A stretch of DNA of 64,000 nucleotides. Source: Microcystaceae cyanobacterium. GTDB taxonomy: Bacteria > Cyanobacteriota > Cyanobacteriia > Cyanobacteriales > Microcystaceae. The position numbers were made by a program, and so were the translations under genes. Positions 1,151 to 43,013 of this stretch are shown piece after piece (positions within the stretch are counted from its first letter, which is position 1; each line of letters starts with the position of its first letter). The notes under the pieces are model-generated. The model made no database searches. It saw only the letters and a program-made list of their open reading frames with translations, and was not told the DNA's origin. Where the stretch lies: NCBI GenBank assembly GCA_041746575.1, contig JBGTGT010000123.1, forward strand, positions 76,688-140,687, written 5' to 3'.

Positions 1151-1591
1151 GTGATTATGGTTCAATTTAGCAATTCTTCTGCCAATAATGCCCCCAGTCG
1201 CTGGCAATATCGATTAGATCGATTCGTCAAAACCCATCAATCCTCGTTGGCGGCTTTGGCGTGGGGATTACGTCAAGAATGGGACAATCAGGGCGATATG
1301 TTAGGCATTGATCTTAAAACGACTCCTCATTTTATCTGTTGTTCTTATGAGGCGATCGCTCAATTAAACGAGAATGTTGATTGTAAAATTCAAGAGATAT
1401 TAGGGATTATTGAACATTATGATCCTCAAGAAGAAGTGGTGATTATTACGATCGCCAATAGTCAAATTCAGTTAATTTATTTCCAACCGAATCCGACTCC
1501 TCCTGAGTGCTTCGCTCAGCATCAATTGAACTTAGATCAATTAATTCAGTCTCTAGAAACTGAAATGCAATCTATTGGGATTGAGGATTAA
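1151..1591 (+). CDS. ccmS: Beta-carboxysome assembly chaperone CcmS-like protein
   Basis: W..LD.FV....LAALAWGL, GIDL..PHF, QEILG..E...P..EV, F.P.P.PP.CF pattern recalled for the CcmS family. Confidence 0.7.
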   Translation: MIMVQFSNSSANNAPSRWQYRLDRFVKTHQSSLAALAWGLRQEWDNQGDMLGIDLKTTPHFICCSYEAIAQLNENVDCKIQEILGIIEHYDPQEEVVIITIANSQIQLIYFQPNPTPPECFAQHQLNLDQLIQSLETEMQSIGIED

Positions 1592-5749: not shown

Positions 5750-5857
5750 TTAAATTTTCTCAATGGGTGCTAATTTTGGGTCAATAATTTTTTGTCCTAA
5801 ACCTTCAAATTTAACTGCAATATTTATTTTATTGCCAGCTCTCAAAAGACGAGTGAG
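5750..5857 (-). pseudogene. Fragment resembling the C-terminal Tudor-like tail of cyanobacterial PcrA/UvrD helicase
   Basis: Manual translation gives LTRLLRAGNKINIAVKFEGLGQKIIDPKLAPIEKI*; no helicase core upstream. Confidence 0.6.
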
Positions 5858-5884
5858 ATCAAATCCGTTTAAACGACCATAATT

Positions 5885-5909
5885 CCGTAAGGGTGCAAGG
5901 CTTGCGCCC
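5885..5909. repeat. Degenerate cyanobacterial REP-like palindrome
   Basis: GGGTGCAAGGCTTGCGCCC hairpin; related degenerate copies at about 23180-23201 and 45289-45316. Confidence 0.5.
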
Positions 5910-6030
5910 ATCTTGCTCCAAAGAGATTATGTAAAAGGCGATCGCCCCTGAAATAAAACGGCTACCATAACCACAAGATAGATTAATAGGAGTCTCCAAA
6001 CTTCAACTTATCTACTAAATTCTTGTGAGA

Positions 6031-8844
6031 CTATAACCAATTACCCACTAAAACGAAAGGAGCCCAATAAAAAGGATGTTGATATTGAGGCGATCGCAAT
6101 AAAGACAGTTGCGCTTGTCTTAAGGCTTCCGCTTTACTCATGTCAGATTGACTCAAATACTGATAGAATTGAGCAATCAAATCTGCCGTCGATTGATCTT
6201 GGACTGACCAAAGAGTGGCTAAGGTACTCTGCGCACCTGAACGAACGGCGGTCCCTGCTAATCCTAATACGGCTCGTTTATCCCCCGTTGCTGTCTGACA
6301 AGCACTCAAAATCAACAATTCAATCGGATTTCTCTGTTGTTTTATCCGTTTTCGGAGCAATTGATCTAAATTTTTGACATTGATTCGTTCATCCCACGTC
6401 AGTAAAAACGTTTCTTCTGCTTGAGAAGAAAATTGACCGTGAGTGGCAAGATGAACCACAGGGAATGAGGTTTCTTCAATTTCTCGTTGCAGACGGTTGC
6501 GGGTAAAATCTTCGTCTAATAAGACTTCGGTAGAAACCACTGCCGAAATTTCTTGTACTTCTGCCTTGACACCGGGTAAGGAAGAGAATCCTTGACGTGC
6601 TTGCGCTAATCCCCCTGCTAGGGTTTTTAAGGGTTTTTCAGAGAGAGAGGACGGACGAAGCAGGTGCAAACCGGGTGCTAAAGCAATGTTATACTTTTCA
6701 ATTAAGTATTGCTGACCATCATGAAGCGCGGCCATCGGAATATTGCGTAGAAGGCCATCGAGAACGAATACCAAGGTTTTGATATGATTAGCTTCTAAGG
6801 TAGCTTCTAAAGGGCGAATTAGCCAATTATAAAACTGTTGATGGGGTTCTAGGGGATAAGGACTTGAAATAAAGGGGTTCAAGTTGGCAAATAACTCATC
6901 GAAGACAGGTTCAAGTTGTTCTAATGTCCCATAGCCGGAATTCTGATTAAAAGCGGTTTCATAGTAGCTTAACGGCTTTTGCGGTAAAGACAAAATGATG
7001 GCAATTCGTTGGGGTAAAACAATGGGATAGATTACTGCCGCATCGGGATCGAGTTGATCAACGGCTTGAAATTCCGCTTCTAGGCAGTTTTCTCGAAAGA
7101 AGTTGTTTAATTCAGCAAGTTGCAAAGACTCAATGATATTACGGGCTTCTTTGAGGGTATTTTCGCTGATTTGCCCTGTTGGCTCTAAAAGTTGATCGAC
7201 CAATTCTCGATAGACAGGTTCGACACTATCGCGAAAGTTAAATTGGATGTCTGCATTGCTGGTGACTAAGTCCCCTCGTAATGATTCTAGAATTTCTACG
7301 GCTAAGCGATAAGCAGCGATCGCTTCTTCTTTTTTTCCTAAAGAATAATACAAACGTCCCAGTTGCCATTGCCAGAAATAAGCCAATTCTGGATTTTCAA
7401 AGGCAGATATCTGCTGTAAAGCTAGCACGGTTGACTGTTGCGCCTTTATGGGTTGTCCCATCCCTTGGTAGGTTGCCCCTAGATATCCTAGGGAATTTGC
7501 TTGTGCGGCTTTGTCTCCTAGGGTTTGAGCTTGATTGAGGGCGATGGTGACTTTTTGCTGAATCTTTGTCCAAGTTGGTGGCGTTATTGCCTCAAAATGG
7601 GGATTTTCGACTATTGGACAAGACTGAAGAATAGGGGTGACAGGTAAGGTTTCATCCGTAGTGAATTGAGAGCGTAGGCACATTAACTGTTGAGCAAATT
7701 TGAGTTGTGCGGCAACGGTTGGATCATTAGGGGGTGAATTTGTTAATTCTGCCTCAATTTTAGCGATTAAAGTCGGTAGTTCTTGGCTTTGTCCTAGTTG
7801 CATCCAGAGACTCAGTAAATTGAGTTGCGCTTGTACTCTCGTGAGGGACGAAGGGGATTGTTCCGCTTGGTGATAACAGGCGATCGCACTTTGATACCAT
7901 TGACTAAGACTGAGATCATCCTCGGATAGGGGGCAACTGACAGATTGGGTTAAGTTGATCGGCGTTGGGGATGGAGGAATCGTAATTTTTTGATTGCCTA
8001 ATATTCGCACGGTATTGCCTAAACTGAGGGCAATTTCGGCTAAACTTTCTTTATCTTCATTCCTTTCTGCTAATTCCCAACTTTTTAATAGTACCCGATG
8101 GGAGACGTGGGGTTGCCCCGTTACTCGTAAGACGTTACCAAGACTGCGTAATCCTAGAATTTGTAGAGAAGTGGGCATATTTTCGGGGACTTGTGGCAAT
8201 TTGTCCCCTTTTATTTGACAATCTTCACTCTTAAAGTCCAAAGCATCGAGTAATGTTGTGCAAGCTCTCGGATAAAACCCTAAGGATTGCATGGCTTGTG
8301 CTTGATTGATCTGGCTTTGACGGACTCGATTGGGTTCCCCCATTTCTTGATAAATAGTAGTTGCTTTTTGCCAATTTTCTAAAGCATTTGCAGATTGACC
8401 CAAGTTTAAAGCTAATTTTCCTTTGATTTCTAGAGTTTCTGCTAAGATACGCTGTTTAGTATTGTTTTTTTTGACAGTGTCTAATAGAGCTAAGCTTTGA
8501 GCGATCGCTTTTTTGGCCTCATCCCATTGTCCGAGTTGCTGATGGGTTAAGGACAGATTACTCAGTGCCATGGCTTGATTGAGGGTATCTCCTTGGGTAG
8601 CAAATGTCTCGACTGCCTGTTGCCAGAGGGGGATTGCCGACTCAAATTGTCTTGTTTGATAGTTTTCTTTTGCTTTTTCAACCCATTGCGCTGTATTTTG
8701 CTGATTCTGAACAGAGGGCATGGAAAGAGAAACCGAAGAAGTAATCAGAGGAAGCGTGAAAGCAACAAAGAAAAGAAAAATAAGCAGAATTGACTTTTTT
8801 CTGATAAAACTTCGTACTCTCTGGTTTTTAAATCCAATTTTCAT
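6031..8844 (-). CDS. Exported TPR-repeat CHAT-domain (caspase-like) cysteine protease
   Basis: N-terminal hydrophobic signal/TM, TPR repeats, CHAT motifs LVFVLDG.LRNIP, VHLATHG (His), LLILSAC (Cys), HPFYWAPF; the ATG at 8844 overlaps the upstream stop (TAATG). Confidence 0.93.
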   Translation of the reverse strand: MKIGFKNQRVRSFIRKKSILLIFLFFVAFTLPLITSSVSLSMPSVQNQQNTAQWVEKAKENYQTRQFESAIPLWQQAVETFATQGDTLNQAMALSNLSLTHQQLGQWDEAKKAIAQSLALLDTVKKNNTKQRILAETLEIKGKLALNLGQSANALENWQKATTIYQEMGEPNRVRQSQINQAQAMQSLGFYPRACTTLLDALDFKSEDCQIKGDKLPQVPENMPTSLQILGLRSLGNVLRVTGQPHVSHRVLLKSWELAERNEDKESLAEIALSLGNTVRILGNQKITIPPSPTPINLTQSVSCPLSEDDLSLSQWYQSAIACYHQAEQSPSSLTRVQAQLNLLSLWMQLGQSQELPTLIAKIEAELTNSPPNDPTVAAQLKFAQQLMCLRSQFTTDETLPVTPILQSCPIVENPHFEAITPPTWTKIQQKVTIALNQAQTLGDKAAQANSLGYLGATYQGMGQPIKAQQSTVLALQQISAFENPELAYFWQWQLGRLYYSLGKKEEAIAAYRLAVEILESLRGDLVTSNADIQFNFRDSVEPVYRELVDQLLEPTGQISENTLKEARNIIESLQLAELNNFFRENCLEAEFQAVDQLDPDAAVIYPIVLPQRIAIILSLPQKPLSYYETAFNQNSGYGTLEQLEPVFDELFANLNPFISSPYPLEPHQQFYNWLIRPLEATLEANHIKTLVFVLDGLLRNIPMAALHDGQQYLIEKYNIALAPGLHLLRPSSLSEKPLKTLAGGLAQARQGFSSLPGVKAEVQEISAVVSTEVLLDEDFTRNRLQREIEETSFPVVHLATHGQFSSQAEETFLLTWDERINVKNLDQLLRKRIKQQRNPIELLILSACQTATGDKRAVLGLAGTAVRSGAQSTLATLWSVQDQSTADLIAQFYQYLSQSDMSKAEALRQAQLSLLRSPQYQHPFYWAPFVLVGNWL

Positions 8845-11429
8845 TAACGAGTACACCCCTGCTCTGTTTCTCTCAAGCGTTGAACACTGGTCACCGTAGG
8901 ATCATAAGACACCAAAACGACTTCCCCTCTCTCGTTAAAAACCCATCCTTGGGTGGCAACAAGGGAATTAGGACTTAAAGCAGTTTTTGTAATCGCTATG
9001 CTCTCTTTTTTGCCAATCTCCTGATTTCTCATGGGTGCAGGTTCAACTAAGCCGATTTCAGTGGCTTCACTGTTGAGATTTTCATTAAGGCTAGGGGTAG
9101 GGGGTAAGCCGCCCCGTCCTGATACGACTAATTCACTTCCTAAGCCGCTTTTACAGGAATTTTGGGCAATTAGTGTCTTGGGATCGACAATGGTTTCGGG
9201 CAGTAGCTCTAAGCCTTGATTGGAGTCTGGTTCTCGGTTAATAAAGATTTCTCCGGCTGAACCTGATTCTGAACTGGCATCAAGATCATTGGTTCGATTG
9301 CCGTCAGAAGCTTTCCGTCCTTGAATCCCAAAAATTCCCTCTGCGTTAATAATAATCCGTCCTCCATCTCCTTGGTTAGCATTAGCTGTAATGTCGCTTC
9401 CATTTGCACCCGTTGGTGGAGAAACAATCAAAAATGGTGTTTTAATTGTGATATTTCCTCCGTTAGCCTCCCCGTTGGCGGTAGCAGAAATGGTGCTTTC
9501 GTTGGCTATGGTTATTAAATCTGATGCAGTTAGGGTAATATTTGCTCCCTCTTCTCCTTGACTCCTACCTGTTTCGGCGGTAATTAAACCTTGATTAAGG
9601 GATAAGGAATTAGCGTTAATGTCAATGTTTCCGGCTAAACCTTGGCGACTGCTAACAGTGATTTGTGCGCCCTCAGAGAGGTTTAATTGTCCTGTAGTAA
9701 GGTTTAAATTCCCTGCTGTCCCACCTTCTTGGGTTGCTTTTACGGATAATTCTCCATTATTGCTCAATTGTACCGCTTCATGTGCGTTAATCGTTAAGTT
9801 TCCTGCCCTTCCTGTTTGAGTCGAAGCAGATAGGGTAGCTCCCTGTTGAATGGTTAATAGAGGAGTATTGATGGTCAAGTTTCCAGCCGAGGTACTTTGA
9901 CTGGTCGCTAAAACAGTGCTGTTTAACCCACTCAGGATAACTGACTCAGAAGCATTAATATTCAAGTTTCCTGCTTGTCCTGTACTTCTATCAAGAGCGG
10001 AAACGGATATACTCCCTCCGTCTTGGATACTCAGGCGACCTGTGTTGATGGCGATACTTCCTCCATTCCCTGAGGCTTCTCCTATTGTTTGAGCAAACAA
10101 ACTACTCCGTATTATTTTATTTTCTGATCTCCCTTGACCGCTAATCTCTACTGATTCCGTTGCTTCTACCGTAATCGTACCTGCATTGCCAGCACTAGAA
10201 GTCGAACTTGATAGCTGGCCTCCATTACGCAAAATAAGGCGACCCGTTTTAAGGGTTAAATCCCCTGCATTCCCATTGGCGAACGTTTGAGTACTTAATT
10301 GGTTAAAGCCTCCCCCAGCGTCCACCTCTACAGATTCAGTTGCATTGATAATTAAGTTTCCGCCTCGTCCCTCCTCATTTTCTGCAGTTGTCCTTATAAA
10401 CGATGAGTCATCTCGGACAACTAACTGTTTGGCTTCAATAATAATATCAGCCGCTGACCCACTATTAGATGTTGCTGTTACATCACTATCTCCTTCGACT
10501 GTTATCATTTCGGAAGCGTTTAGAGTAATTGTTCCACCTACATCCGTTCCTTGATTAAATCTTGTGATTTGGGATTTGTCCATTAATAAAATGTTTCTAC
10601 CCCGTAAGCTAATACTTCCGAGACCTTCCGTCGGTTCTAAAATACCTATACCTATACCTGCCTCCCGTGAAAGTTGAATATCTTGGAATGCCTCTACACT
10701 GTCGTAACTGAATGTCCAAGTAGTAGTTTGAGGGATTAGACTAACAAAAGCAGGAGAAGCTACGCTACCGATCTCAATGCTTCCTCCCAGAGTCGTAATT
10801 TTGCCTCCTTCTAAAAATACGCCACTCCCAATAAGTGCTAGGGTTCTACTGGGTGGAACTGCGAGTCCAGATGAATTTGTATCATTCACGACGGAGCGAT
10901 TGACGATACTGCCCGAATTCCCCCTAAATTGCAGACCAATCGGAATGCTAGTGGTTAGCAAGGGGGACGGCGACAAATCTCTAGCACTGAAAACCTTTCC
11001 ATCCGCAAAATGAATCTCACTAGCAGTACTGGCAATAAATGAGCCACCAATCTTTAATTGGGCATTATTCCCAAAAACGATGCCGCTCGGATTTAGTAAA
11101 AAAAGGTTCGCTGGATGATTTGCTCGAATTACTCCCTCAATATTAGATAAAGATCCCCCTGTGACTCGACTAAAGATATTTTGGATGGTATTGGCATTGT
11201 TAAAGAAAGCTTCTCCACCTGAGGGAATGGAGAACTCACGGAAGCTATGAAAAAGATTTCCTCCTTCTTGCCGACCCCCTACAATCGTAAATTGAGATTG
11301 ATCGGGGGTGGTGATCTCAGTCGATAATGTCCCGTCCCCACTGATTTGTGCCAAGCCGAGGGGCGTTATTATTAAATTACCTAAACTAAAAACACTGACA
11401 AGGGAAAGGAAATTTATCAATTTTTTCAT
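8844..11429 (-). CDS. TpsA filamentous-haemagglutinin-family exoprotein
   Basis: Signal peptide, TPS domain NLFHSF..F / SRVTGG / NLFLLNPSG, beta-helix repeats (GNAG.I.I.A), C-terminal GRGGLP...QGW motif. Confidence 0.93.
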   Translation of the reverse strand: MKKLINFLSLVSVFSLGNLIITPLGLAQISGDGTLSTEITTPDQSQFTIVGGRQEGGNLFHSFREFSIPSGGEAFFNNANTIQNIFSRVTGGSLSNIEGVIRANHPANLFLLNPSGIVFGNNAQLKIGGSFIASTASEIHFADGKVFSARDLSPSPLLTTSIPIGLQFRGNSGSIVNRSVVNDTNSSGLAVPPSRTLALIGSGVFLEGGKITTLGGSIEIGSVASPAFVSLIPQTTTWTFSYDSVEAFQDIQLSREAGIGIGILEPTEGLGSISLRGRNILLMDKSQITRFNQGTDVGGTITLNASEMITVEGDSDVTATSNSGSAADIIIEAKQLVVRDDSSFIRTTAENEEGRGGNLIINATESVEVDAGGGFNQLSTQTFANGNAGDLTLKTGRLILRNGGQLSSSTSSAGNAGTITVEATESVEISGQGRSENKIIRSSLFAQTIGEASGNGGSIAINTGRLSIQDGGSISVSALDRSTGQAGNLNINASESVILSGLNSTVLATSQSTSAGNLTINTPLLTIQQGATLSASTQTGRAGNLTINAHEAVQLSNNGELSVKATQEGGTAGNLNLTTGQLNLSEGAQITVSSRQGLAGNIDINANSLSLNQGLITAETGRSQGEEGANITLTASDLITIANESTISATANGEANGGNITIKTPFLIVSPPTGANGSDITANANQGDGGRIIINAEGIFGIQGRKASDGNRTNDLDASSESGSAGEIFINREPDSNQGLELLPETIVDPKTLIAQNSCKSGLGSELVVSGRGGLPPTPSLNENLNSEATEIGLVEPAPMRNQEIGKKESIAITKTALSPNSLVATQGWVFNERGEVVLVSYDPTVTSVQRLRETEQGCTR

Positions 11430-11475
11430 AGCGATCCTTTTTTATGACGCTTGCTCTCATCTTAACTTTTCCGTT

Positions 11476-11937
11476 CTATCCCGGATTACAGGTGACACAT
11501 CTTCGCCAAGGACCAAACCCAGCCCACTCCCCAATTCGTCCGAAACGAGACGTACATTCTCCGCATGCTAAACCAACCCGAGAAGTTAGCCCTTCTATTG
11601 CCTTTTCTCCGGCGCCGGCTTGCTTCCATAAGCGATCAGCTTTACTCAGTTCACCTTTTTGTTTTTTAATGTCTCCTAGACGCGTTTTAGCCACAATCAA
11701 AACGTCAACGTCTTTATTGTTTAGAACTTCTTCGATGGCTTTGTTAAAGAAAAACTCTGCATCATTGGTGTTCCCTGCTTCACTGGCTGCTATTCCGTCT
11801 TCTAACGCTTTCAAAGCTTCGCTATCGCGGGGCGTCTGAGCTGATGCAACTACAGGCGACATTACTAATACGGTTAAGCTGAGCATCAATGCTAGGACAA
11901 GGGAGCAGAGCATTGTCAAGGGAGACCGTCTTTTCAT
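11476..11937 (-). CDS. Secreted protein with TPR-like helices and a C-terminal CxxC-x18-CxxC tail
   Basis: Signal peptide ending ASA-Q, TPR-like helices, C-terminal CGEC...CVTC, AAGGA RBS upstream. Confidence 0.75.
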   Translation of the reverse strand: MKRRSPLTMLCSLVLALMLSLTVLVMSPVVASAQTPRDSEALKALEDGIAASEAGNTNDAEFFFNKAIEEVLNNKDVDVLIVAKTRLGDIKKQKGELSKADRLWKQAGAGEKAIEGLTSRVGLACGECTSRFGRIGEWAGFGPWRRCVTCNPG

Positions 11938-12038
11938 AAGTCAAATTTCCTTTTTTAAAAACAACTGAGATAAGACATCAGAATTCTAGAGAATGATTCC
12001 CGTGAATTTTCGACTTTTTTAACAAAAATTCATATCTC

Positions 12039-12404
12039 TTAGCGGAGTTCAATATCTGAGCGATCACGAACAACGGATTCAACTTCTGGCAAAGCGGCAA
12101 TCTTTTCTGCGACCATTGGCGTACCTAACAAAGCGACAAGGGGAAAGGCTGTTGGCTCTCCTATCGCCAAAACCTGATCTTCTAACCCCTCCTGTTGAAG
12201 CCATTGTTGGAGTTTTTGTTGAAAAGCTTGGTTATAAGCGATTCCACTTTCATAGATAGCCCCCCGTCCTTGAACAGATTTTGAGCTTTCATTTTCTGGT
12301 TTTAGCCGAATAATGTAAGGGTGTACGTCTGGAGGTAACTTTGAATAATCGCCGAGTAAAGGCTGAATGTTGGATGAAACATCTTGATCGGGTGGAATTT
12401 CCAT
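12039..12404 (-). CDS. Putative stand-alone subtilase propeptide / inhibitor I9-like protein
   Basis: YIIRLK near the N-terminus and AEKIAALPEVESVVRD at the C-terminus match the I9 pattern; ATG at 12404 lies 13 bp after the S8 stop. Confidence 0.55.
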   Translation of the reverse strand: MEIPPDQDVSSNIQPLLGDYSKLPPDVHPYIIRLKPENESSKSVQGRGAIYESGIAYNQAFQQKLQQWLQQEGLEDQVLAIGEPTAFPLVALLGTPMVAEKIAALPEVESVVRDRSDIELR

Positions 12405-12417
12405 AGAAAAACAATAA

Positions 12418-13797
12418 CTAAGAACAGGTAGGAACAAATCTAGCTAATCCAGCACCGACTCGTGCGGCGGGTTGATCATTAAGCTTAAGGGTATTGTTGA
12501 GGAGTTTTGCTCTAACGTCTTCTGGGGTTAATGAAGGCTCTTGACAGAAATATAAAGCCGCAATTCCCGTAACATAAGGGGCTGCCATACTGGTGCCACT
12601 TAAATTTTTATAGAGAGAGGAACCCTCGTAATCTCTTTCGTAGCTAGAATATATATTCACGCCATAGCCTACTAAATCCGGCTTACTGACGTTTCCGTCT
12701 TCATCTGCTTGTCCACTACCCGACAAGTCAAAGATTTGATGATTGAAATCCACAGCACCGATCCCCAAAATTTCCTTAAAACCCGCAGGAAATCTTAAAT
12801 TGTCTTGGCCTTCATTGCCGATTGCCGCAATGGGCAATATATTTGCTTTAATTAGCATTTGCAGAATTTTCCGCATGGTCTTGAGGCGTCCTTTGAACTC
12901 AGCGTCGGATTCGATATCCGTCGCCAATGAGCGGCTAAAACCAAGGGACATATTGAGAACGGCGGGAAGATTTTCATTTTCGGGGCGACTGAAATGAGAC
13001 AAGAGCCACTCCAATCCAGCCGCAACTCGAATAAGGTCAGTGCGAGAACTGCCGCTTTCGATCACTGACGCAACGTATAATTTGGACTCAGGTGCTATCC
13101 CTACCCGATTACCGCCAACAATACCGCAAACGTGTGTACCATGACCGTCAGGATCAAACCCTCGTACATCACGAGGCGGCCATTTGAAATCTTGGGGAAA
13201 GAGAGAGACGTAGCGATAGGTTACAGGACGACTAAATTCTTGATGATCGGCGTCTATTCCACTATCGAGAACCCCCACGAGAACATCTTGTCCTCTGATG
13301 TTTTGCTCGTGTGCTTCTGCTACCCCGCTAGTAATGCGCCATTCCTCCTCCTTAGCGCAACGGTATCCCCGAGCGTCATCATGAGTGATTGGCTGGGTTA
13401 AAAATAAGGGAAAATTAGGGAGAAATAAATAATCGCTATCTAGATCGCTTTTGGCATCGTTTTCTTCCTTCTCATCACAAAAATAGGCGGCAGTCACTCC
13501 CAGGGCATTGAGACTAGAAAATATTCCTTTTGAACAGGAAGATGCGTCTTCCGTTTGTAGCTTTTGAATATTCTCAAGACCCAGTTTTTGTAACTTATTG
13601 GGGACAGAAAACTCAGCATCTGGGTCATCTCTTCTCCATTCTAGCGGCTGCTGAGTTCCTCGACTACGTTGCATGATGGATCGAGAAGAAGTTGTATTCG
13701 AGTCAGCTTGACAAGTATGCTTGGGAACAACAAGATAGGCGTTGGCAAACTCTTGTTCTAAAGAATTAAGCGTTCTCTTCATCGAGGATTGAGGCAT
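12418..13797 (-). CDS. S8 subtilisin-like serine protease, no signal peptide
   Basis: Catalytic triad VLDSG, HGTHVCG, SGTSMAAP; oxyanion AAIGN. Confidence 0.93.
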   Translation of the reverse strand: MPQSSMKRTLNSLEQEFANAYLVVPKHTCQADSNTTSSRSIMQRSRGTQQPLEWRRDDPDAEFSVPNKLQKLGLENIQKLQTEDASSCSKGIFSSLNALGVTAAYFCDEKEENDAKSDLDSDYLFLPNFPLFLTQPITHDDARGYRCAKEEEWRITSGVAEAHEQNIRGQDVLVGVLDSGIDADHQEFSRPVTYRYVSLFPQDFKWPPRDVRGFDPDGHGTHVCGIVGGNRVGIAPESKLYVASVIESGSSRTDLIRVAAGLEWLLSHFSRPENENLPAVLNMSLGFSRSLATDIESDAEFKGRLKTMRKILQMLIKANILPIAAIGNEGQDNLRFPAGFKEILGIGAVDFNHQIFDLSGSGQADEDGNVSKPDLVGYGVNIYSSYERDYEGSSLYKNLSGTSMAAPYVTGIAALYFCQEPSLTPEDVRAKLLNNTLKLNDQPAARVGAGLARFVPTCS

Positions 13798-13975
13798 AGG
13801 AATAATGGGCTAAAGTTTAATGAGTAATAAGTTAGGGATACAACATAGATTGATTTTTTCCTTAAATTGTCTGCTTATCGTAACTCACTTTTATTTGAGC
13901 CTTTGACGCACTGTAATATTTATTTAATATTCAACGCACTAAGCAAACATAAATAGCTACTCATCGTTATTTTTT

Positions 13976-15718
13976 CTAAAAAAAGCGATAATTAATCGTA
14001 AAATAAAGCCCTTGCTCCTGTAAGGTCTGATCACTCGATTCAACATCAATTAAGGGAATTCCCCAATCAAAACGCGCTGTAAAATTGTCCCCCATCTGCC
14101 ACTGTAGCCCCAGTCCTATGCCTAGCAACGTATTTGGTACAGGAGTTAAGAGGGGATTACCCGTATCATTCCAAGCTACCCCAAAATCGATAAAAGGAGC
14201 AACTTGTAGAATGCCATTCACTTCATCAACCCGAAGAATTGGCAAACGCACTTCTGCTGAGGCGAAAACCCCATTATCCGTTAATAATAGATCCTGTCGA
14301 TAGCCTCGCACCGTATATAAACCCCCCAAAGTAAATTGCTCCAACGGAACAAGGGGTTGAGTCGTAAACTGTAAGGAAGAACGGAGAAGAAGCAAAGTAT
14401 CGGGTGCCAGCGATCGCACATACTGTCCTTGCCCTTGCCATTCAAAAAAGCGGCTATCGGGGGGATTATTATTTGTCGTTGCATCAAAGATATCTAAGCC
14501 AAAACTAAACTGAGAACGAAGAATAAAGATATCCTGAGAGCCTCGCTGAGTCCACTCTTGAAAAAAGCGTAGGGCTGAAATCCTTGTTTTCCCTTGATCA
14601 TTTGCGCCAGGTGAAAGAGGGAAACCTATGCCTAAGAGCCGAGTTTGACTCGCTGAATAGGAGGCGGTGATTCCCAAGGCCAATTCTTGGGTCGGAGTTT
14701 GCCAAATCGGTTGGCGAAAGCTTAGATCAAGATAAAGGGAATCCCCTTCAATATCTAAACGGTCAAAAGGGGCTTCAATCACCTGACTCGCCGTCCCTTG
14801 CGCTGTCAATTGCACTGTGCCATTGTAAGCATTAACAGGGATTGTGTAACTGCCATAAATGGCGTTACTGCCCTCCGTATTGGCGTATTCTATCCTCAAG
14901 CCGTCGCCAATACCGAATAAATTGCCTTGATTGAGGTCAATTCCCCGCTCAAAACTGCCAATACTGGGTACTCGGCTATTATCCAGAAAAACATTCAGAT
15001 AAAAAGAATCAGCTTCTTGGACTTTAACCGACAGAATACTCAATTCAGGGCGGCTTCCTGCTGACAAATCGGCGGAAATCGTTTCAATAAGGGGATCTAA
15101 TTGTAAGAGTTGTAGGGCTTCTAAGAGGCGATTTTGATTGAGGGGTGGGGCGGTGGCAATGGCTAACCGCTTGCGAACATAATCGGGGTTCAATCGTCCT
15201 TCAACCGTCACGTTGATGTCTTCAATGCCTCCTTCAATCACTTGCATTTTAACCACGGCGCGCTCAGGGGTAAAAACCTGTCCGGCGGGAATAAGCGCAC
15301 CCGAATTGATATATCCTGCGTTGACATAGTGTTGGGTAATCGCCGCCTCCGCTTGTAGTAATTGAGCAAAAGTGATGGGTTTATCGGTAAAAGGGGCGGT
15401 CACTTCCCTTAATTCTTGATCGCTAAACGCCGTATTGCCCTCAAATTCAAAGCGAATAATGGTAATATTTTGGGGCAAGTTGGGTTGATTTTGAGGAGAG
15501 GGAAGGGGTGTCGGAGGGATATCTAAGGAAGGAGCAGGAGGCGTCTGGGGAATCGGAATCGGTTCTGGCGATCTAGGGGGCAAAATAAAGGGACTCAGCG
15601 GCGGTTGGGAGCGAGGAGGAGTCGGATTTTGCGCATTTGCTCTCTCTTGAGAAAAAACAACGAATCCCTTTAATATCAATAAAACTAATAAATTTGCACT
15701 TAAACAGCGAAAATACAC
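13976..15718 (-). CDS. TpsB (ShlB/FhaC/HecB) outer-membrane transporter
   Basis: Signal, Pro-rich linker, POTRA (F.FEGNTAFS, Y...GYINSGA), VRGY motif, terminal aromatic residues. Confidence 0.95.
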   Translation of the reverse strand: MYFRCLSANLLVLLILKGFVVFSQERANAQNPTPPRSQPPLSPFILPPRSPEPIPIPQTPPAPSLDIPPTPLPSPQNQPNLPQNITIIRFEFEGNTAFSDQELREVTAPFTDKPITFAQLLQAEAAITQHYVNAGYINSGALIPAGQVFTPERAVVKMQVIEGGIEDINVTVEGRLNPDYVRKRLAIATAPPLNQNRLLEALQLLQLDPLIETISADLSAGSRPELSILSVKVQEADSFYLNVFLDNSRVPSIGSFERGIDLNQGNLFGIGDGLRIEYANTEGSNAIYGSYTIPVNAYNGTVQLTAQGTASQVIEAPFDRLDIEGDSLYLDLSFRQPIWQTPTQELALGITASYSASQTRLLGIGFPLSPGANDQGKTRISALRFFQEWTQRGSQDIFILRSQFSFGLDIFDATTNNNPPDSRFFEWQGQGQYVRSLAPDTLLLLRSSLQFTTQPLVPLEQFTLGGLYTVRGYRQDLLLTDNGVFASAEVRLPILRVDEVNGILQVAPFIDFGVAWNDTGNPLLTPVPNTLLGIGLGLQWQMGDNFTARFDWGIPLIDVESSDQTLQEQGLYFTINYRFF

Positions 15719-15984
15719 AGTTTACTTTTGATTTCTAACGTTGCTTAACTTTTATTTGAGAATAACATAGACTTCTTGAATCTTAAAAAAAATTTGACAT
15801 CATCCAAAAGTTCGGCTACCACTGAAATAAAACATCCTTTTCTACAGTTGTTTTGTTTGCAACTTGACGGAGGCAGGACTTCGCCTTTTATAATTCCTCT
15901 TTTCATTTTTATCGTCCATTTAAACCCCTGTTGAGTTAATCTAAAAACTTTAGAAAATCCCTATTTTTGCCATAAATAAGTAAA

Positions 15985-16713
15985 ATGCTCAATAAACAGC
16001 TTATTCTTTATCCAATCCTTCTAGGGCTATTGGTTCTGGAGACGACTCCCACTGTCGCCCAATCTCATCCTCCAGCATCTGATCCAACCCCTCGCATTTT
16101 GACTAGAGTCTTATTTAAGCCACCCCCAGAGGACAAAAAACCGCATCAAACTAGAGCGGCAGGTTCTCGTAATGAAGGACGTTGTCCTCAAGATAGAGAT
16201 TCTTCATCAACACCTCTGACTCCCCTCGTTCCTTCCGCTTCCTTTGGCTTAACAACAACAGAACGCCCCACTTTATGGTTAATGATACCCAAAACAACTG
16301 CTAGACAGGTGGTGTTAAGCATTCGAGAAGAAGGCATCCAATATCACTCCAAAACCCTGATTCCGATTACGGGTGAGTCTGGCGTTATTGGTTTACAACC
16401 CTCCGCAGATGCGCCTCCTTTAGCGACCGGCAAAACCTATCAATGGGGGGTAGTATTGGTCTGTGGAAAAACCCCGACGCCGAATGATCCCTCCTTTGCG
16501 GTTTGGGTAAAACGGGTGGCTATTGGCAATCCCCCTCAGCACGGCTCAACTTTGGAACAAGCCGCTTGGTATGGTAATCAGGGGATTTGGTACGATGCTT
16601 TAACCCATCTCGTGAAAGCCAGTCAATCTCAGCCGAATGATCCCGAATTAAAAGATATTTGGCATAATTTTCTTCAATCCGGAGGAATATTATCGAACGC
16701 TGATGAAGAGTAA
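15985..16713 (+). CDS. DUF928 family exported protein
   Basis: Signal peptide, F.PP..., T..AGSR..C, LTPLVP, T..ERPTLW, G..YQW, GIWYDAL. Confidence 0.88.
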   Translation: MLNKQLILYPILLGLLVLETTPTVAQSHPPASDPTPRILTRVLFKPPPEDKKPHQTRAAGSRNEGRCPQDRDSSSTPLTPLVPSASFGLTTTERPTLWLMIPKTTARQVVLSIREEGIQYHSKTLIPITGESGVIGLQPSADAPPLATGKTYQWGVVLVCGKTPTPNDPSFAVWVKRVAIGNPPQHGSTLEQAAWYGNQGIWYDALTHLVKASQSQPNDPELKDIWHNFLQSGGILSNADEE

Positions 16714-16727
16714 AAAGTCTTATAATC

Positions 16728-19436
16728 TTATTTTAGGAGTTCTTTCTCGATAAATGCCTTATTTTCAGGTGTTTCTGATTGCTTTAGGTATTCAAGAGCC
16801 ATGCGTCCAATTTGTTCATCGTCTCGATAGGCTTCTAATAAAGCGTCTAAGGTGAGATGAAATTGAAGCTGATCTCGTTGCTTGTTGGTAATGAGCAGTA
16901 AGATGGTCGTCCCCCCTAAAAGAGCGATTAAAGAAGGCATAACAGGCAACCACCACCCCTCTATAAAGGCAAGGTAGCATCCCCCCACCAGTCCCCCACT
17001 GATCCCTAAAGAAACGATGAGAATCGCTTTAAGCGATTTAAATCGCCAACTGATGCTAGCACCGACGGCGGCCATCACTAAAATCCACAACCCTTCCCAG
17101 AAATCGGGCAAAACCCGCAGTAAGGGTCGCCCATCTAAGGCAGCACTGAGCAGTTGGCTGGCAATATTAGCCTGAATAACGATTCCCGGCATCATTGCAG
17201 GGGAATTCAAGAACGGACTGCTATAAGGGGTATAGAACAAGTCATTGATGCTTTCGGCGGTTGTTCCGATTAAAACTAAGCGATCGCGGAAATCATCGGG
17301 AGAAATGGGGTTATTCAGAATTTCTCTTAAGGAAAAAGTTCTAAAATTAGGTTCTGTTCCTCGAAAATTAAGCAAAATCTGGTAACCGCCTGACTGGGTG
17401 CGTACATATCCCCCATCGTTCCCAGTGAACCGCTCAAAGTCGGCTTTTCCCAGACGCACCCGTTGTCCCTGTTGATCGAGAGATTCAAGCGTAATATTAT
17501 GGACTTCAAGATAATGCAAGGCTAACTTTACGGCAAAACTGTAGCGAATCTCGTCATCCGCGAGAATCATCGACAATAAGGCACGACGAACTTTTCCATC
17601 TCCATCGACCACTAGATCGGCAAAACCAATTTGTTGACGTTGATTAAGGTAGGGAGAAGGGGCAATTGTCATACCGATCGCTTTTTCGATGCCGAATAGA
17701 TAGGGGGTCGATTGAAACAGTTGAACTAAATCACGATGACCGGGTTCGACGGGTAAATCTCGATAAAGATCGAGTCCAATGGCTTGAGGTTGGGCGGCTT
17801 TAATCCGGCTCAGGGCTTGAGCTAAGATACGGTCGGGGATCGGCCACTGTCCAACTTGAGCCAAGTCTGTCTCATCGATGGTTACAATTACAACTCGTTC
17901 GTCAGGGGGTTCTAGCGGTCGCCAACGTAGGAATCGATCAAATCCGTGCCATTCTAAGCCCTGTAGCAGTCCACTGAAGCGCAGGAGGAGAAGGGGGATA
18001 GTTACCCCTAGGGCTGTAAGGGGAATCCATTTGCACTCGGTTCTTCGTTTCAGAATGGTTTGTTTGGCGATCGCTCTAGCGGATGCTAGTAAGTGACTAG
18101 CTTGTTCGGTAACATCTAAGAGGTGCTGGGTTTGTTGTTTGGCGACATCTTGACTGGCTACTAAAAATTGATAATCTTCTTCGCTGAGGCATTTTCCTAA
18201 TCCCCACGTTAAGGCTTTTTGCAATTCTACCCCTTGTAACAAATAGAGAGTATCCTGACGTTCAGACGCAGACCAAGCGGCGATCGCACTGGCATACGGT
18301 CGCAATTGCTCTAATTGTTGTTCTAGCCAATTTTGGTCAAAAACCGCTTCATAAATGGGATTATGAATTTTGAGGTGTCCTTGCTTTTCGACCACTAACC
18401 CTGACATTCGTAATTCCATCTGTTCAGCACTGCCGTCAGCAGGAATTTCGCCTTGTTGCCATATTTTTTGATAAAGTCCTAGTAATTGAACGGCTTTTTC
18501 TTCGTTTTTAAGAATTCTGTCTCGGATCGTTTTTAAATGTTGGGGTTCGTCTTGAACAACCCAGTTTTTGACAATCTGATTGCGTACTATTTGTTCAATG
18601 GTGGGAAGTGTCGTAATGGGTGAAGTGGCATCAAAGAGAAGGGATTGGGATTTGACGACTAAATGACAGAGTTTTTGGGTAAGAAAGGGCTGTCCTCCTG
18701 TCCAGTCTAGAATTTCTCGGATCACGGCTTCAGGATACTCTATCGTCCCTTTTAATCCTTCCATTAAGGGTTGGACTTCGGCAAAAGAAAAGCCAGATAG
18801 TTGAATAGCCTGACCAATATTAAAGGGGGTTTGTTTTTTATCACGAATTAAGTCAGAGGGAGAGGCAACTCCTAACAGGGCAAAGGTCAAACGTTTGTAA
18901 TCGGAATGGGTATTCCGTCTCTCGTAACAATAGCGAATTAGTCTAAACAGGTCATCAAGGGAAAAGGATTGACTGAGAACATAATCAATTTCATCAATAA
19001 AAATAGCGATATTCTGCTTGATTTCAACTAAGAGAATTTCTTCGATAAATAAACTTAAACATTGTACGGGTGAAAACATTTCCCGCTGTTTCTTCCACCA
19101 GGTTCGCCATTCAAATTTCGAGATGAGTTGACCGCCATTGACTAGGGTATAAAAAATGCCAGCATACCACGTTTCGGGGGTTACATTCTGACTGCCGAGG
19201 CACGTTAGGTCAATACAAACACAAATGATCCCTTCTGCTTCTAATCGCTTCATCGTTCGCACTCGCAAGCTGGATTTGCCCATTTGCCGCGAGTTGAGGA
19301 CATAACAAAACTGCCCGATTTTTAAGGCTTGATAAAAGGCTACGTCTGCCTGTCGTTTTACATAGCTAGGCGCATCACTGTCGAGACTTCCGCCGACTTG
19401 ATACACATAAGTTGATGGCATTGCTGTCATGGACAA
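16728..19436 (-). CDS. AAA_35 (STAND-like) NTPase - TM - CHASE2 - 3TM receptor
   Basis: YQVGGSL, NSRQMGKSS, IFIDEID, TPFNIG, WTGGQPFLTQ; CHASE2 WPIPD, IGLDLYRD, D.DG.VRR, VLIG.TA..ND; three C-terminal TM helices. Confidence 0.9.
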   Translation of the reverse strand: MSMTAMPSTYVYQVGGSLDSDAPSYVKRQADVAFYQALKIGQFCYVLNSRQMGKSSLRVRTMKRLEAEGIICVCIDLTCLGSQNVTPETWYAGIFYTLVNGGQLISKFEWRTWWKKQREMFSPVQCLSLFIEEILLVEIKQNIAIFIDEIDYVLSQSFSLDDLFRLIRYCYERRNTHSDYKRLTFALLGVASPSDLIRDKKQTPFNIGQAIQLSGFSFAEVQPLMEGLKGTIEYPEAVIREILDWTGGQPFLTQKLCHLVVKSQSLLFDATSPITTLPTIEQIVRNQIVKNWVVQDEPQHLKTIRDRILKNEEKAVQLLGLYQKIWQQGEIPADGSAEQMELRMSGLVVEKQGHLKIHNPIYEAVFDQNWLEQQLEQLRPYASAIAAWSASERQDTLYLLQGVELQKALTWGLGKCLSEEDYQFLVASQDVAKQQTQHLLDVTEQASHLLASARAIAKQTILKRRTECKWIPLTALGVTIPLLLLRFSGLLQGLEWHGFDRFLRWRPLEPPDERVVIVTIDETDLAQVGQWPIPDRILAQALSRIKAAQPQAIGLDLYRDLPVEPGHRDLVQLFQSTPYLFGIEKAIGMTIAPSPYLNQRQQIGFADLVVDGDGKVRRALLSMILADDEIRYSFAVKLALHYLEVHNITLESLDQQGQRVRLGKADFERFTGNDGGYVRTQSGGYQILLNFRGTEPNFRTFSLREILNNPISPDDFRDRLVLIGTTAESINDLFYTPYSSPFLNSPAMMPGIVIQANIASQLLSAALDGRPLLRVLPDFWEGLWILVMAAVGASISWRFKSLKAILIVSLGISGGLVGGCYLAFIEGWWLPVMPSLIALLGGTTILLLITNKQRDQLQFHLTLDALLEAYRDDEQIGRMALEYLKQSETPENKAFIEKELLK

Positions 19437-19510
19437 CGTTTTTTGATGTCAGTCTCTACGATTCCACTCTCCATTATTTATTAAGTTTAATAGCTTGTCA
19501 AGTTTCGGAG

Positions 19511-31104: not shown

Positions 31105-31703
31105 CTAGTCATGCTTTTGGGCGAGGTAAGCAAAGAAGACTCGGCGCCCCACCCCTGCGATTCTACAAACCTCAGCGGCTGTCTTTTCAGAATTTTGATA
31201 CAAGATCCTGGCATTCTCCAGTTTGGCAACATCAGTTCGTGGTCTTCCCCCCGTTCTGCCTCTAGCTTTAGCAGAAACTCTTCCAGCGGAAGCTCTTTCG
31301 GCACGTAATTCTCGTTCCATCTGGTAGATAGCCCCCATCATCGACAGAAAACACCGACCTGTAGCAGTGGTAGTATCAATACTCTCTCGCAATGACAACA
31401 AATTAATCTGACGTTGTTCTAGAATCTGTGCAGTTTCAAGTAGATGGAGTAACGAACGGGTCATGCGACTTAATTCAGTCACAACTAAAATATCACCTGG
31501 ACGAATATATTCAAGCAGCTGCGCCCATCCAGGTCGCTCCATTCGCGAAGCAGTTAACTTATCAGTTCAGTAAAAATTTTAAGACAACCAGCTTAGTTCA
31601 AAGCATCCATCTGGGAATCAAGATTTTGACCGATGCTGCTGACACGGGCATAGCCAATGCGATTTGGGACTGTTTTCGGTTCAACGGGTGTTGAAGTATC
31701 CAA
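31105..31703 (-). pseudogene. Serine resolvase/invertase pseudogene
   Basis: N-terminal RIGYARVSS..QNLDSQ, in-frame TAA at 31593-31595, 5-bp duplication (TCAGT twice, 31562-31571) causing a frameshift, then RPG..L...RPGD.LVV..L.R..RS, ER..AG...A.ARGR.GGRP and an HTH. Confidence 0.88.
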
Positions 31704-31836
31704 AGTGCAAAATCTTAACTCATCTAAAGAGTATCTGCACGTTGATTATAGCAAAGGTTTTAGCACTAAAAATTAACGTAAACTCATAAAGTCAAATCAA
31801 GTAAGTCAGAAGTGCAGAAAGTCTACTTTCTGCACT
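31702..31836. promoter_or_regulatory. Putative res site of the resolvase
   Basis: Perfect 12-bp inverted repeat AGTGCAGAAAGT-CT-ACTTTCTGCACT (31811-31836) plus further GTGCA/GCAC half-sites at 31705-31770. Confidence 0.65.
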
Positions 31837-31851
31837 ACCAACTGGAGTTTA

Positions 31852-33001
31852 TACCAATTTAAATTGAATGAACTACAGATGAGCTAGACTAAGAAGAGTT
31901 GTTTAGTGAAATCTCCAGATGGTTGGTGTTACCTCAATTCAAGTCCAGCAAAGCTTGGATGATCTGACGGAACAGTTGCGTCAAGCCCAAACGCCGACTG
32001 TCAAGGAACGATTGCAAGTCCTCTACTGGCTCAAACAAGAAAGTCCTCCCAGTGTCACTACCATTGCTAAAGCCATAGGGAAAGATCGAAGTACAGTGCA
32101 GACGTGGTTATCGATGTATCGTGATGGTGGCCTAGAGGCGATGTTGAAAATCAAGAAATCGCCTGGAGGAGTGCGAGTGATCCCAAAATGGGCTGAAAAT
32201 GCTTTAGACAAGCGATTACAAGACCCCAATCAGGGGTTTGTCAGCTATGAAGAAGTCCAGCAATGGTTATCCGAAACGTTGGGAGTAGAGGCCAAGTATC
32301 ATGCGGTGTATCAGATGACCCACTATCGGTTAAAAGCCAAGTTGAAAGTGGCACGTCCTCAACATGACTTGCAGGACAAGGAGCAGCGTGAGGCTTTTAA
32401 AAAAACCTTGTTGACGACCTCGACCTGTTGAGCCAGTATGCTAGAGAGGTCAGACAAGATGTTCGACCGATTCGCTATTTTGCGGCTGATGAGAGCCGCT
32501 TTGGACTGAAAACCCTTGTCGGACGCTTGATTACTGCCTGTGGCATCAAACCGATTGGGCAATGGCAGTGGTTGTTCAAAGCTTTTTGGTTGTATGGGGC
32601 TGTAGAACCAGCGACGGGTGAATCTTTCTTCTGGCAACTTAATCATGTTGATACCGACTGTTATCAATTTTTCTTAGATGAGTTCTCCAAAGCTTATCCT
32701 GATAGCCTTAACATCCTTCAAGTTGATAACGGACGGTTTCACAAAGGCAAAGATTTGATTGTGCCAGAAAATGTCATTCTCTTATTTCAGCCGCCTTACT
32801 GTCCTGAATTAAATCCCATTGAGCGTTTATGGGAACATCTCAAGGCCGATCTCAAGTGGGCTTCTTTCAAGACCCTAGAGCAACTACAAACAAAATTAGA
32901 TGAACTTCTCAGTGAGTTAACGCCTGAAATTGTTGCTTCTGTGACTGGTTATTCCTTCATCTTGGATGCCCTATCTGTCGTAACCCCCATTTAAATTGGT
33001 A
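31852..33001 (+). mobile_element. IS630-family insertion sequence
   Basis: IRs TACCAATTTAAAT and ATTTAAATTGGTA, TTA duplicated at 31849-31851 and 33002-33004, two-ORF transposase. Confidence 0.92.
31919..32994 (+). CDS. IS630 transposase (HTH ORF 31919-32431 + DDE ORF, probable -1 frameshift)
   Basis: Slippery TTTTAAAAAAAC at 32395-32406; DESRFG, VDNGRFH, PPYCPELNPIERLW. Confidence 0.88.
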
Positions 33002-33124
33002 TTAGACTAACTGCCCGCAATGGTCACACTAGACTGTACGGTTTGCTTACAGGGGAAGCGCCTTAAAATTTGTCTTAGCTTGTCAGAAAGCTAAAAATTT
33101 TTAAGAATAGTAACAATTATTGTT

Positions 33125-42035: not shown

Positions 42036-43013
42036 ATGACAGGGATTCCCATTACCGTTTCTTCTCGTTCTCAAGTTCTCAGTCACGCTGAGTTTGTAGC
42101 GATTTTTGCCGACTTCTTACGAACTGATACAGCTAATGGTAACGCTAGTACCGATACGATTCGCACCTATCTCAGTCAAATTCAGCAATACTTCTCTTGG
42201 TGTCAGCAAAATCAGATTCACCCGATTCAAGTTACCCGTCGTCACCTCAAAGAATATCGTCGTTGGATGATCGAAGAAAAAAGTTATAAATCTACCACCA
42301 TCGCTTTAAAACTGGCCACCGTCAGACGTTTCTATCAAGCGGCAATGGAAGAAGGAATCCTTCAAAGTAATCCCGCCATAGGGATTAAACCGCCTCAAGA
42401 AAAACGAGATCCTGCCGAAAATATTACTTATTTAGAACAAGATGAAGTTCAAATTTTACTCGACGCCATTTCCGATGATCATTCACTTAAAAGTAAACGC
42501 GATCGGGTATTAATTGAAATTATGATCCGAGAAGGCACAAGAACGGTAGAATTGCATCGAGCGAATATCAGTGATATTGTCCGTCGGGGTCATAATATTG
42601 GCATTCGGGTTGAAGGAAAAAGAAGTATTCGTGTTGTCCCCTTAACGCCTTATTTGGCGGAAAGCTTACAAGATTATCTCACCAGCCGTCGGGAAAATGG
42701 GGAAATTCTTAACCCGAATACACCCCTCTTTATTGCCGTCGGAAATCGCGCCAAGGGAAAACGCCTCAGTCGTTGTGGCATTCGTCGAATTGTCGATAAA
42801 TATCTCCTAGCCTCCCAATTAAAACATACACCCGGACGCACCCTATCTGCCCACAGTTTACGGCATACCGCAGGAACACTCGCTTTAAGAAATGGCGCAG
42901 ACTTACGACAAGTTCAAGATTTACTCGGCCATGCCGACCCTCGTACTACTGCCATATACGCTCATGTAGGCGATCGCTGGGTCAATAATCCGGCTTTAAA
43001 TTGGGACGTTTAA
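42036..43013 (+). CDS. Tyrosine recombinase (XerC/D-like)
   Basis: SAM-like N-domain; catalytic [23 protein letters not shown]. Confidence 0.93.

Follow-up and report, generated by a model that had tools for sequence, protein, structure and literature searches.

Does a group of eight adjacent genes of a Microcystaceae cyanobacterium, which combines a two-partner secretion (TPS) pair with an exported caspase-like protease and a membrane receptor, encode a signalling system that works across the cell envelope? The genes lie between recN and a ClC gene, at positions 6,031 to 19,436 of the 64,000-nucleotide stretch analysed here (the window; positions 76,688 to 140,687 of contig JBGTGT010000123.1, assembly GCA_041746575.1). 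Our comparative analysis identified their core, composed of TpsB, TpsA, an exported TPR-CHAT protease, a DUF928 protein and a CHASE2 receptor, as a recurrent cyanobacterial module. The best reading of it, which in our judgement falls somewhat short of probable, is an outside-in, protease-gated pathway that crosses the envelope through a DUF928-CHASE2 complex, in which a fibre, the exported caspase-like protease and a small helper probably control the membrane receptor. Contigs of the window genome (G000) are labelled C, relative genomes G and loci L; papers given by PMC number were consulted as excerpts, to which all statements about them refer.

The eight open reading frames (ORFs) are all real and apparently intact, with the adjacency, strands and domains that an earlier first-pass annotation, made from the letters alone, had assigned to them:

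6031..8844, minus strand: exported TPR-CHAT caspase-like protease, 937 aa from the ATG at 8844 (Pfam, alignment, cysteine survey)
8844..11429, minus strand: TpsA, 861 aa, with signal peptide, TPS domain (27-257), repeat region and conserved C-terminal tail (Pfam, alignment)
11476..11937, minus strand: small exported protein, 153 aa, with signal peptide, TPR-like helices and a C-x2-C...C-x2-C tail (profile and alignment)
12039..12404, minus strand: PopD-like protein, 121 aa from the ATG, without signal peptide; probable S8 inhibitor (NCBIfam, Pfam, alignment)
12418..13797, minus strand: PopC-like subtilisin (S8), 459 aa, triad D178/H219/S403, without signal peptide (Pfam, homologues)
13976..15718, minus strand: TpsB outer-membrane transporter (POTRA and ShlB barrel), 580 aa (Pfam)
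15985..16713, plus strand: DUF928, 242 aa, exported, with Ig-like sandwich and helical domain, MtxA-like (Pfam, predicted fold)
16728..19436, minus strand: inner-membrane receptor, 902 aa, with STAND-like AAA_35 NTPase, helical linker, transmembrane segment, CHASE2 (482-793), three transmembrane segments and a short tail (Pfam, motifs, model)
19473..19501, minus strand: best sigma-70-like promoter match of the region, 11/12 (consensus match only)

The core genes recur together

Full-length AAA_35-CHASE2 genes were found in 19 of 61 relatives. We compared 23 receptor loci, namely 22 of the 23 matches outside the window genome plus the window itself; seven of them end less than 6 kb downstream, and kin among them are not independent. 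Within the stretch fetched, DUF928 is adjacent to the receptor in 16 loci, a long CHAT gene is present in 12, a free or fused TpsA in 10 and TpsB in 6. The clustering exceeds chance, and the co-occurrence of core genes on which the first-pass annotation had built its proposal is thus upheld by the survey across cyanobacteria that it had suggested: the genes travel together, if loosely. All homologues found for the core genes are cyanobacterial. The window genome itself holds further TpsA genes beside CHASE2 (C15) and near CHAT (C133), as well as a TpsA-CHAT fusion on C75. No full member was seen in a sample of 400 genomes of the phylum, and a metagenome scan yielded a single locus, its gene content equal to that of G454. 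The literature searched (mostly non-subscription papers, supplements falling outside its scope) contained no study of this gene combination; the module may appear in the gene-neighbourhood files of PMC8195603, while the excerpts of PMC13581612 make no mention of CHASE and those of PMC7159879 mention neither CHASE nor CHAT.

DUF928 as a likely partner of CHASE2

The window genome has four CHASE2 and four DUF928 genes, and every CHASE2 gene has a DUF928 neighbour. Across 41 cyanobacterial genomes, with 174 DUF928 and 222 CHASE2 matches, the two copy numbers are closely coupled (Spearman 0.95, and 0.91 after genome size; kin are not independent). The predicted structure of DUF928 (pLDDT, the predicted local distance difference test, 85) is an Ig-like sandwich with helices; of 48,161 chains compared, MtxA has the most similar fold (Z 9.8, root mean square deviation 3.6, 145 aligned residues, 12% identity; next match Z 7.7), a match also found by Foldseek (E 4e-4). 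A conserved CHASE2 adenylate cyclase gene comes after mtxA (PMC4439547), and this was the only paper found with both terms. DUF928 was likewise found in one paper only of the literature searched (PMC5587647), where it appears as a neighbour of a CHASE2 gene. According to PMC10581220, CHASE2 is a sensor whose ligands are not known; whole-receptor searches returned no fold match for this domain, NTPase matches having filled both lists, and a PDB sequence search with the CHASE2 part found no match.

Prediction of the DUF928-CHASE2 complex, which the first-pass annotation had proposed as a check, lent the pair weak support (score 0.53, best of three controls 0.00, 58% contact agreement, partner pLDDT of at least 76). 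The mark applied was reached by 116 of 157 solved pairs vs 2 of 215 mismatched ones, counts that hold roughly with our own alignments, and 18 of the solved pairs as well as both mismatched pairs reached it with scores at 0.60 or under. Because the pairing was already likely before any complex was modelled, we regard binding of DUF928 to CHASE2 as likely, and the copy-number coupling, the MtxA fold with its gene context and the weak docking pass together point to DUF928 as a protein partner of CHASE2. The earlier suggestion that CHASE2 reads DUF928 is to this extent retained, although DUF928 looks more like a periplasmic binding co-receptor than only a protease substrate. DUF928 Arg62 is part of a G/A-G/A-G/A-S/T-R motif and is present in 47 of 47 aligned DUF928 proteins, and C67 and C160 are nearly invariant.

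The TpsA tail and the exported TPR-CHAT protease

TpsB, with its POTRA domain and ShlB/FhaC barrel, and TpsA, with a signal peptide and an N-terminal TPS domain, are partners of the type Vb kind. TpsB-like proteins of Anabaena are reportedly treated in a study of 2021. The CHAT domain (PF12770, 228.6 bits, above cut-off) has the His/Cys dyad, and the first-pass view that this dyad is intact holds, His806 and Cys853 being invariant in 9 of 9 homologues (CHAT residues are numbered along the 941-aa ORF, 6031-8856). Glu766 is invariant as well, and may form an acidic pocket for arginine. The eight cysteines of the protein comprise six in the TPR region, which resemble three pairs, the catalytic C853 and an odd, apparently unpaired C591 that is kept in 13 of 15 CHATs; a PDB sequence search with CHAT gave no match. 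The TpsA tail, which belongs to a cyanobacterial Atlas cluster without a Pfam family (0.94), has conserved C759, G771-R772-G773-x-L775-P776, G828-W829 and C859 in all eight TpsA aligned, and R772 is present in 9 of 10 free TpsA tails.

Three natural TpsA-CHAT fusions carry the tail motif immediately ahead of the TPRs. In these proteins the last tail cysteine is lost, the arginine of the motif is replaced by S, S or Q, and the only two non-catalytic cysteines past the signal peptide are the equivalents of C759 and C591; a fourth fusion, in the window genome (C75), is without both of them. Since the natural fusions and the shared cysteine pattern link CHAT to the TpsA tail, it is quite likely that the two act together, and a C759-C591 disulfide would be the simplest reading of the cysteine pattern of the fusions. 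As HetF cuts after arginine, DUF928 R62 and TpsA R772 are candidate CHAT sites.

At 93122-105800 of C133 in the window genome, tpsA and CHAT form a divergent pair next to genes for several small exported proteins, and two further genes there resemble, by eye only, a sigma-like/DUF1822 pair. No functional data for cyanobacterial TPS proteins existed at the time of PMC2878562, according to its excerpts.

The receptor and its output

The receptor has one transmembrane segment before CHASE2, three after it and some 50 residues at the C terminus. Its model (pLDDT 83) places the cytoplasmic part close to SSO1545 (Z 19.5) and PAB2304 (Z 19.2), and residues ~10-370 next match NLR, Cdc6/ORC and MalT chains. 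Walker A (48-56), Walker B (145-151) and a GxP motif (248-250), conserved in 76 sequences, are accompanied by a winged helix, so that the protein has the P-loop NTPase, GxP helical domain and winged helix of STAND proteins, as the first-pass annotation had supposed, and may oligomerise on a signal in a nucleotide-dependent way. It is not of the NLR type: it has neither an N-terminal effector nor a C-terminal repeat sensor, the sensor being the transmembrane CHASE2 part. A PDB sequence search with the NTPase part found no match. STAND clades are reportedly the subject of Leipe 2004.

The AAA_35-CHASE2 architecture is common rather than peculiar to this locus, as both Pfam domains occur together in 116 of the 120 best matches; CHASE2 proteins beside DUF928 have varied cytoplasmic parts. 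The idea that AAA_35 is the sole output holds for the receptor protein itself but probably not for the pathway: because a second AAA_35 gene, coding for a protein of 430-540 aa, lies upstream in 12 of the 23 loci, the output is probably a two-protein AAA_35 pair. The N-terminal domain of this partner gives weak hints of a helix-turn-helix (Sigma70_r4 in 3 of 11, best E 0.07). The window locus lacks the partner gene and the best matches elsewhere in the genome reach 38-48% identity, so the receptor either borrows a paralogous partner or has lost its output.

Other AAA_35 genes are at hand in the same genome. The window encodes at 51142-56833 a protein with receiver, Trans_reg_C and AAA_35 domains (610 aa) followed by one with AAA_35 and WD40 (1177 aa), several more AAA_35 pairs are present, and two unpaired partner-type genes lie on C66 and C37. 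Such AAA_35 pairs may correspond to Npun2340/2341 of the MNS clade.

The inner cassette

At E 1e-40 or better, 551 of the 8000 entries scored are homologues of the S8 protease, and proteins that carry the name PopC in myxobacteria are among them. It is 45-46% identical to P0090 and P0092, the two PopC-named proteins used for this comparison in place of M. xanthus PopC itself, vs 25-32% to other S8s of the window genome. Its triad is invariant in 20 of 20 homologues aligned and, with no signal peptide, it has the features of a PopC-type protease. PopC, too, is without a signal peptide yet reaches the periplasm (PMC6434023), and by analogy export of the window S8 may be possible. The adjoining PopD-like protein matches NCBIfam NF048005 at E 7e-9 with 36 bits (cut-off 200) and Pfam I9 at E 0.049; a PopD-like neighbour in Archangium, with 144 bits, likewise stays under the cut-off of 200, and a PDB sequence search with the PopD-like alignment found no match.

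Within cyanobacteria the S8 gene was found in 4 of 89 genomes of the family, one in each of four genera, at 45-50% identity and with the triad kept, and in none of 400 other order-level genomes sampled. The small-protein profile matches the same 4 of 89 genomes, and the S8 and small-protein genes adjoin upstream of tpsA. The order is tpsB-S8-small-tpsA in G028 and G737 and S8-small-small-tpsA in G016, where the small-protein gene forms two diverged tandem copies; G454 has tpsB-small-tpsA without S8. Both genes therefore belong to the locus, as had been claimed, and gene order shows the recruitment of S8 into the operon; we infer its role, and consider by a narrow margin that it does work in the module. 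The S8-small-small-tpsA block is extra in G016 relative to a sister locus in G030, which suggests that it moves or is lost as a unit.

Outside cyanobacteria, none of 19 PopC-like loci showed another module gene, and in 6 of the 19 the gene immediately downstream is PopD-like, so that the two form a unit of their own there; the tblastn check missed PopD-like genes that blastp found, and it excludes only clear homologues. The proposed S8/inhibitor cassette thus stands as regards the recurring S8 slot but not as a fixed pair, since the inhibitor is seen in one of the four loci and the relatives of both proteins are free-standing in other phyla. PopC-like and PopD-like pairs occur in Poribacteria, Chloroflexota and Myxococcota (L024, L025, L026, L029, L030, L031) and are not confined to myxobacteria.

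Two histories of the cassette were rejected. A recent transfer disagrees with its codon use, which matches the genome, and single descent of the S8-carrying loci is rejected on the receptor tree (p-AU, the p value of the approximately unbiased test, 1.5e-46; three loci, G737 being left out). The S8 tree joins the same three loci with support 77, which neither establishes nor excludes the grouping; the TpsA genes that follow a small-family gene, four in number, do not form a supported clade (support 10).

The small protein represents an undescribed family of about 25 clusters at 50% identity; a word-index search found only the protein itself, the family came from a profile search, and the clusters of 10 of the 25 aligned proteins, when looked up, carried no taxon names. 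Its TPR-like helices resemble the N terminus of TPR-CHAT proteins (hhalign 96%; Atlas), its four tail cysteines are nearly invariant while the remainder of the tail varies, and its gene immediately precedes tpsA in all 5 intact contexts (this count leaves out G648, with a truncated small gene; a G666 match without cysteine tail was dropped). The alignment revealed no conserved cleavage motif or arginine before the tail, and the first-pass view of this protein as a CHAT substrate is a poor fit to an Arg-specific CHAT. In other loci the slot before tpsA is held by unrelated small genes, several with cysteine-rich C termini, none of whose products has a Pfam match reaching cut-off; the slot families roughly track TpsA subtype.

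At least three other small families occupy this slot (L109:10879-11292, L111:10999-11457, L104:8144-8650, L006:1702-2211, L097:825-1193). The truncated small-family gene of G648 (L141:5220-6261) overlaps a CHAT fragment and is possibly a deletion junction or an assembly artefact.

Gene arrangement and flanking sequences

Domains above the curated Pfam cut-offs are CHAT and TPR at 6031-8856, TPS at 8844-11429, Peptidase_S8 at 12418-13797, POTRA and ShlB at 13976-15718, DUF928 at 15985-16713, and AAA_35 and CHASE2 at 16728-19436. Six genes follow one another on the minus strand in the order tpsB, S8, PopD-like, small, tpsA, CHAT, with gaps of 178 bases (tpsB-S8), 13 (S8-PopD-like), 101 (PopD-like-small) and 46 (small-tpsA). 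The TAATG coupling of tpsA with CHAT, already recognized in the first pass, is exact, the last A of the tpsA stop (8844) being the A of the CHAT ATG. The DUF928 gene is divergent from tpsB and convergent with the receptor gene across a 14-base gap. By hydropathy, an N-terminal hydrophobic stretch is present in CHAT, TpsA, the small protein, TpsB and DUF928, and absent from S8 and the PopD-like protein. The G+C content at third codon positions and the codon use of all eight genes are inside the range of the genome.

The promoter match at 19473..19501 sits upstream of the receptor, where relatives have the partner AAA_35 gene. Sigma-70-like promoters showed no overall excess in the region (28 sites vs 25.1 expected from shuffles), and promoter and terminator counts were at chance level. 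The 58-codon frame at 5753-5926, earlier called a pcrA-like remnant, has no Pfam match; its 3' part may resemble the PcrA C terminus, a reading that Pfam did not support, and matches nothing else in the genome convincingly, whereas its 5' part consists of a short repeat that recurs at three other places (C83 once, C98 twice). An ORF of 146 aa without convincing Pfam match follows the ketol-acid reductoisomerase gene (window 1151-1591), and a resolvase fragment, transposase genes and a tyrosine integrase lie at 31105-34459 and 42036-43013.

Proposed mechanism and alternatives

In the outside-in reading, TpsB would thread the TpsA fibre through the outer membrane, as in other TPS systems, leaving the cysteine-bearing tail presumably in the periplasm. 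The exported TPR-CHAT would dock on this tail, possibly by the C759-C591 disulfide that the fusions suggest. A change in the fibre would activate CHAT to cut after arginine, in analogy to HetF, with DUF928 R62 and TpsA R772 as candidates. DUF928 would serve as a periplasmic co-receptor on CHASE2, a binding that is weakly predicted, and its cleavage would switch the receptor, whose STAND-like NTPase may relay the signal to another AAA_35 protein, one that probably has a helix-turn-helix domain and would be supplied here in trans. The small TPR/four-cysteine protein may be an accessory of one TpsA subtype. Restrained by the PopD-like protein, the PopC-like S8 may serve as a second protease, with TpsA or the small protein as its substrate. 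We infer the cleavage and its substrate, the direction of signalling, the export, the tethering and the output; from the first-pass interpretation the gene linkage, the place of the S8 and small-protein genes in the locus, the STAND-like NTPase and DUF928 as a likely CHASE2 partner stand. A fuller version, in which a disulfide-tethered CHAT cuts the DUF928 arginine, the STAND pair relays to DNA and the PopC-type protease frees a variable cysteine-knotted peptide as strain-specific input to a protease-activated receptor, appears improbable as a whole.

Several observations weigh against the outside-in reading. The link between the genes is loose (7 of the 23 receptor loci are without adjacent DUF928 and 11 without long CHAT), and the gene sets lie on different transcription units. 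The complex score of 0.53 falls in a band where passes are often wrong, and a DUF928 profile match on C118, outside the 47 aligned, is without the Arg motif by pattern search. C591 may pair with the catalytic C853 instead, the three fusions, which fall in one receptor clade, may be one event, and the motif does not depend on R772, which gives way to S, S and Q in the fusions and to A in one of the free TpsA. The window genome, 99.8% complete, yielded no orthologue-level match of the partner AAA_35, the best matches there having 38-48% identity vs 53-68% for most relatives. As for the cassette, S8 has no signal peptide, most module copies lack it and none of the 400 other order-level genomes sampled has it, the G737 enzyme (L181:2380-3411, 343 aa) is without most of the N-terminal region, though with its triad kept, and the PopD-like gene, for which 5 of 5 relatives queried gave no match, is confined to the window copy.

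The strongest competitor, though an unlikely one, reverses the direction of the signal: as in the LapD/LapG-CdrA circuit, the nucleotide state of the STAND pair would set the hold of CHASE2-DUF928 on CHAT, and freed CHAT would clip the TpsA tail so that the fibre is shed, an adhesion/dispersal switch. This inside-out scheme explains the same gene set and the same evidence on the TpsA tail, has a precedent in LapD, which sequesters periplasmic LapG, the protease that releases the TPS adhesin CdrA (PMC4694147), and suits a receptor without catalytic output beyond its NTPase. On the other hand, the CHASE2 proteins beside DUF928 vary in their cytoplasmic parts, a CHASE2 cyclase pathway is reported to answer an outside protein signal via NsrA (PMC13001267), and partner AAA_35 proteins with probable DNA-binding domains suit an inward signal.

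Slightly less likely still, the locus would comprise two co-regulated units without a proteolytic relay, namely a TpsB/TpsA/CHAT secretion-maturation operon and a sensor made of DUF928 and CHASE2 whose ligand is unrelated, with the S8/PopD-like pair as a horizontally acquired passenger. Each unit does occur apart in the window genome, DUF928-CHASE2 pairs without tps genes on C118 and C122 and CHAT genes without CHASE2 on C121, and the 19 non-cyanobacterial loci and the scattered S8-carrying loci of the receptor tree fit a passenger. However, both units stay together through several rearrangements, and in all four cyanobacterial cases, one in each of four genera and with the triad kept at 45-50% identity, the S8 is found only in this slot of the locus. 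The weakest alternative, a processed identity or contact signal in which S8 or CHAT cuts a cysteine-knotted tail off the variable pre-tpsA product for DUF928-CHASE2 to read, draws on the unrelated small genes of the slot, the tandem copies of G016, the constant cysteines in a varying tail and the contact signal made by PopC cleavage (PMC6434023), but is improbable given the missing cleavage motif, slot proteins (L109, L111, L104, L006) with no signal peptide evident by eye and families that track TpsA subtype, as a chaperone or partner would.

Comparison with known systems

Should the fuller version with a protease-activated receptor hold, it would name a general input of CHASE2, a sensor with 222 copies in 41 genomes, with MtxA as the equivalent part in magnetotactic bacteria. 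The locus offers a membrane receptor with a STAND-like NTPase output and an undescribed exported protein family, and it makes predictions at residue level (TpsA C759 with CHAT C591, DUF928 R62, TpsA R772).

The Pseudomonas LapD/LapG and CdrA/CdrB system likewise joins a TPS pair, a periplasmic cysteine protease and an inner-membrane receptor in one circuit, with cleavage proposed near the C terminus of the CdrA adhesin (PMC4694147). In contrast, LapG is transglutaminase-like and LapD a cyclic di-GMP receptor, where the window has a caspase-like CHAT protease and a CHASE2 receptor with STAND-like NTPase; none of the eight proteins has a transglutaminase-like or GGDEF-EAL domain, and DUF928 is without counterpart in the LapD/LapG system. 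In the Sinorhizobium pathway from NsrA through CyaD1/CyaD2/CyaK to Clr (PMC13001267), an outside protein signal also reaches CHASE2 receptors, relayed by an outer-membrane protein; its output is cAMP rather than an NTPase, and no TPS pair, CHAT or DUF928 is described in the excerpts. MtxA of magnetotactic bacteria (PDB 4Z29; PMC4439547) is, like DUF928, an exported Ig-like and helical protein encoded next to a CHASE2 receptor, in this case an adenylate cyclase, but has low identity to DUF928 and an extra N-terminal domain, and its tie to CHASE2 is known from gene adjacency.

HetF of Anabaena PCC 7120 is another cyanobacterial CHAT protease used in signalling, and cuts PatU3 after Arg117 (PMC9457339). 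Unlike the TPR-CHAT of the window, which is wholly exported and linked to TpsA, HetF is a membrane protein with periplasmic TPRs across the membrane from CHAT. The EACC2-caspase systems and the MNS (Npun2340/2341) STAND clade (PMC8195603) also bring caspase-like proteases, CHASE2 and STAND proteins together in cyanobacterial signalling neighbourhoods, with the caspase fused into the receptor and ECF sigma and DUF1822 genes nearby; in the window the protease is separate and exported, the receptor has only AAA_35 and CHASE2, and 18 ORFs scanned included no sigma or DUF1822 gene. Finally, Myxococcus PopC/PopD (PMC6434023), marked by CsgA p25 cleavage, Oar export and starvation control, includes a subtilisin without signal peptide, as does the window, where S8 is also followed by a PopD-like gene; the window relatives differ in standing inside a TPS operon and in a PopD score far under the family cut-off, and gave no sign of a CsgA substrate or of Oar export, although no search aimed at csgA or oar was made. 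A signalling protease of myxobacterial type has been recruited into a cyanobacterial secretion operon. Overall, the module is real, conserved and apparently unstudied, and seems to be a variant of protease-controlled envelope signalling built around a TPS protein.

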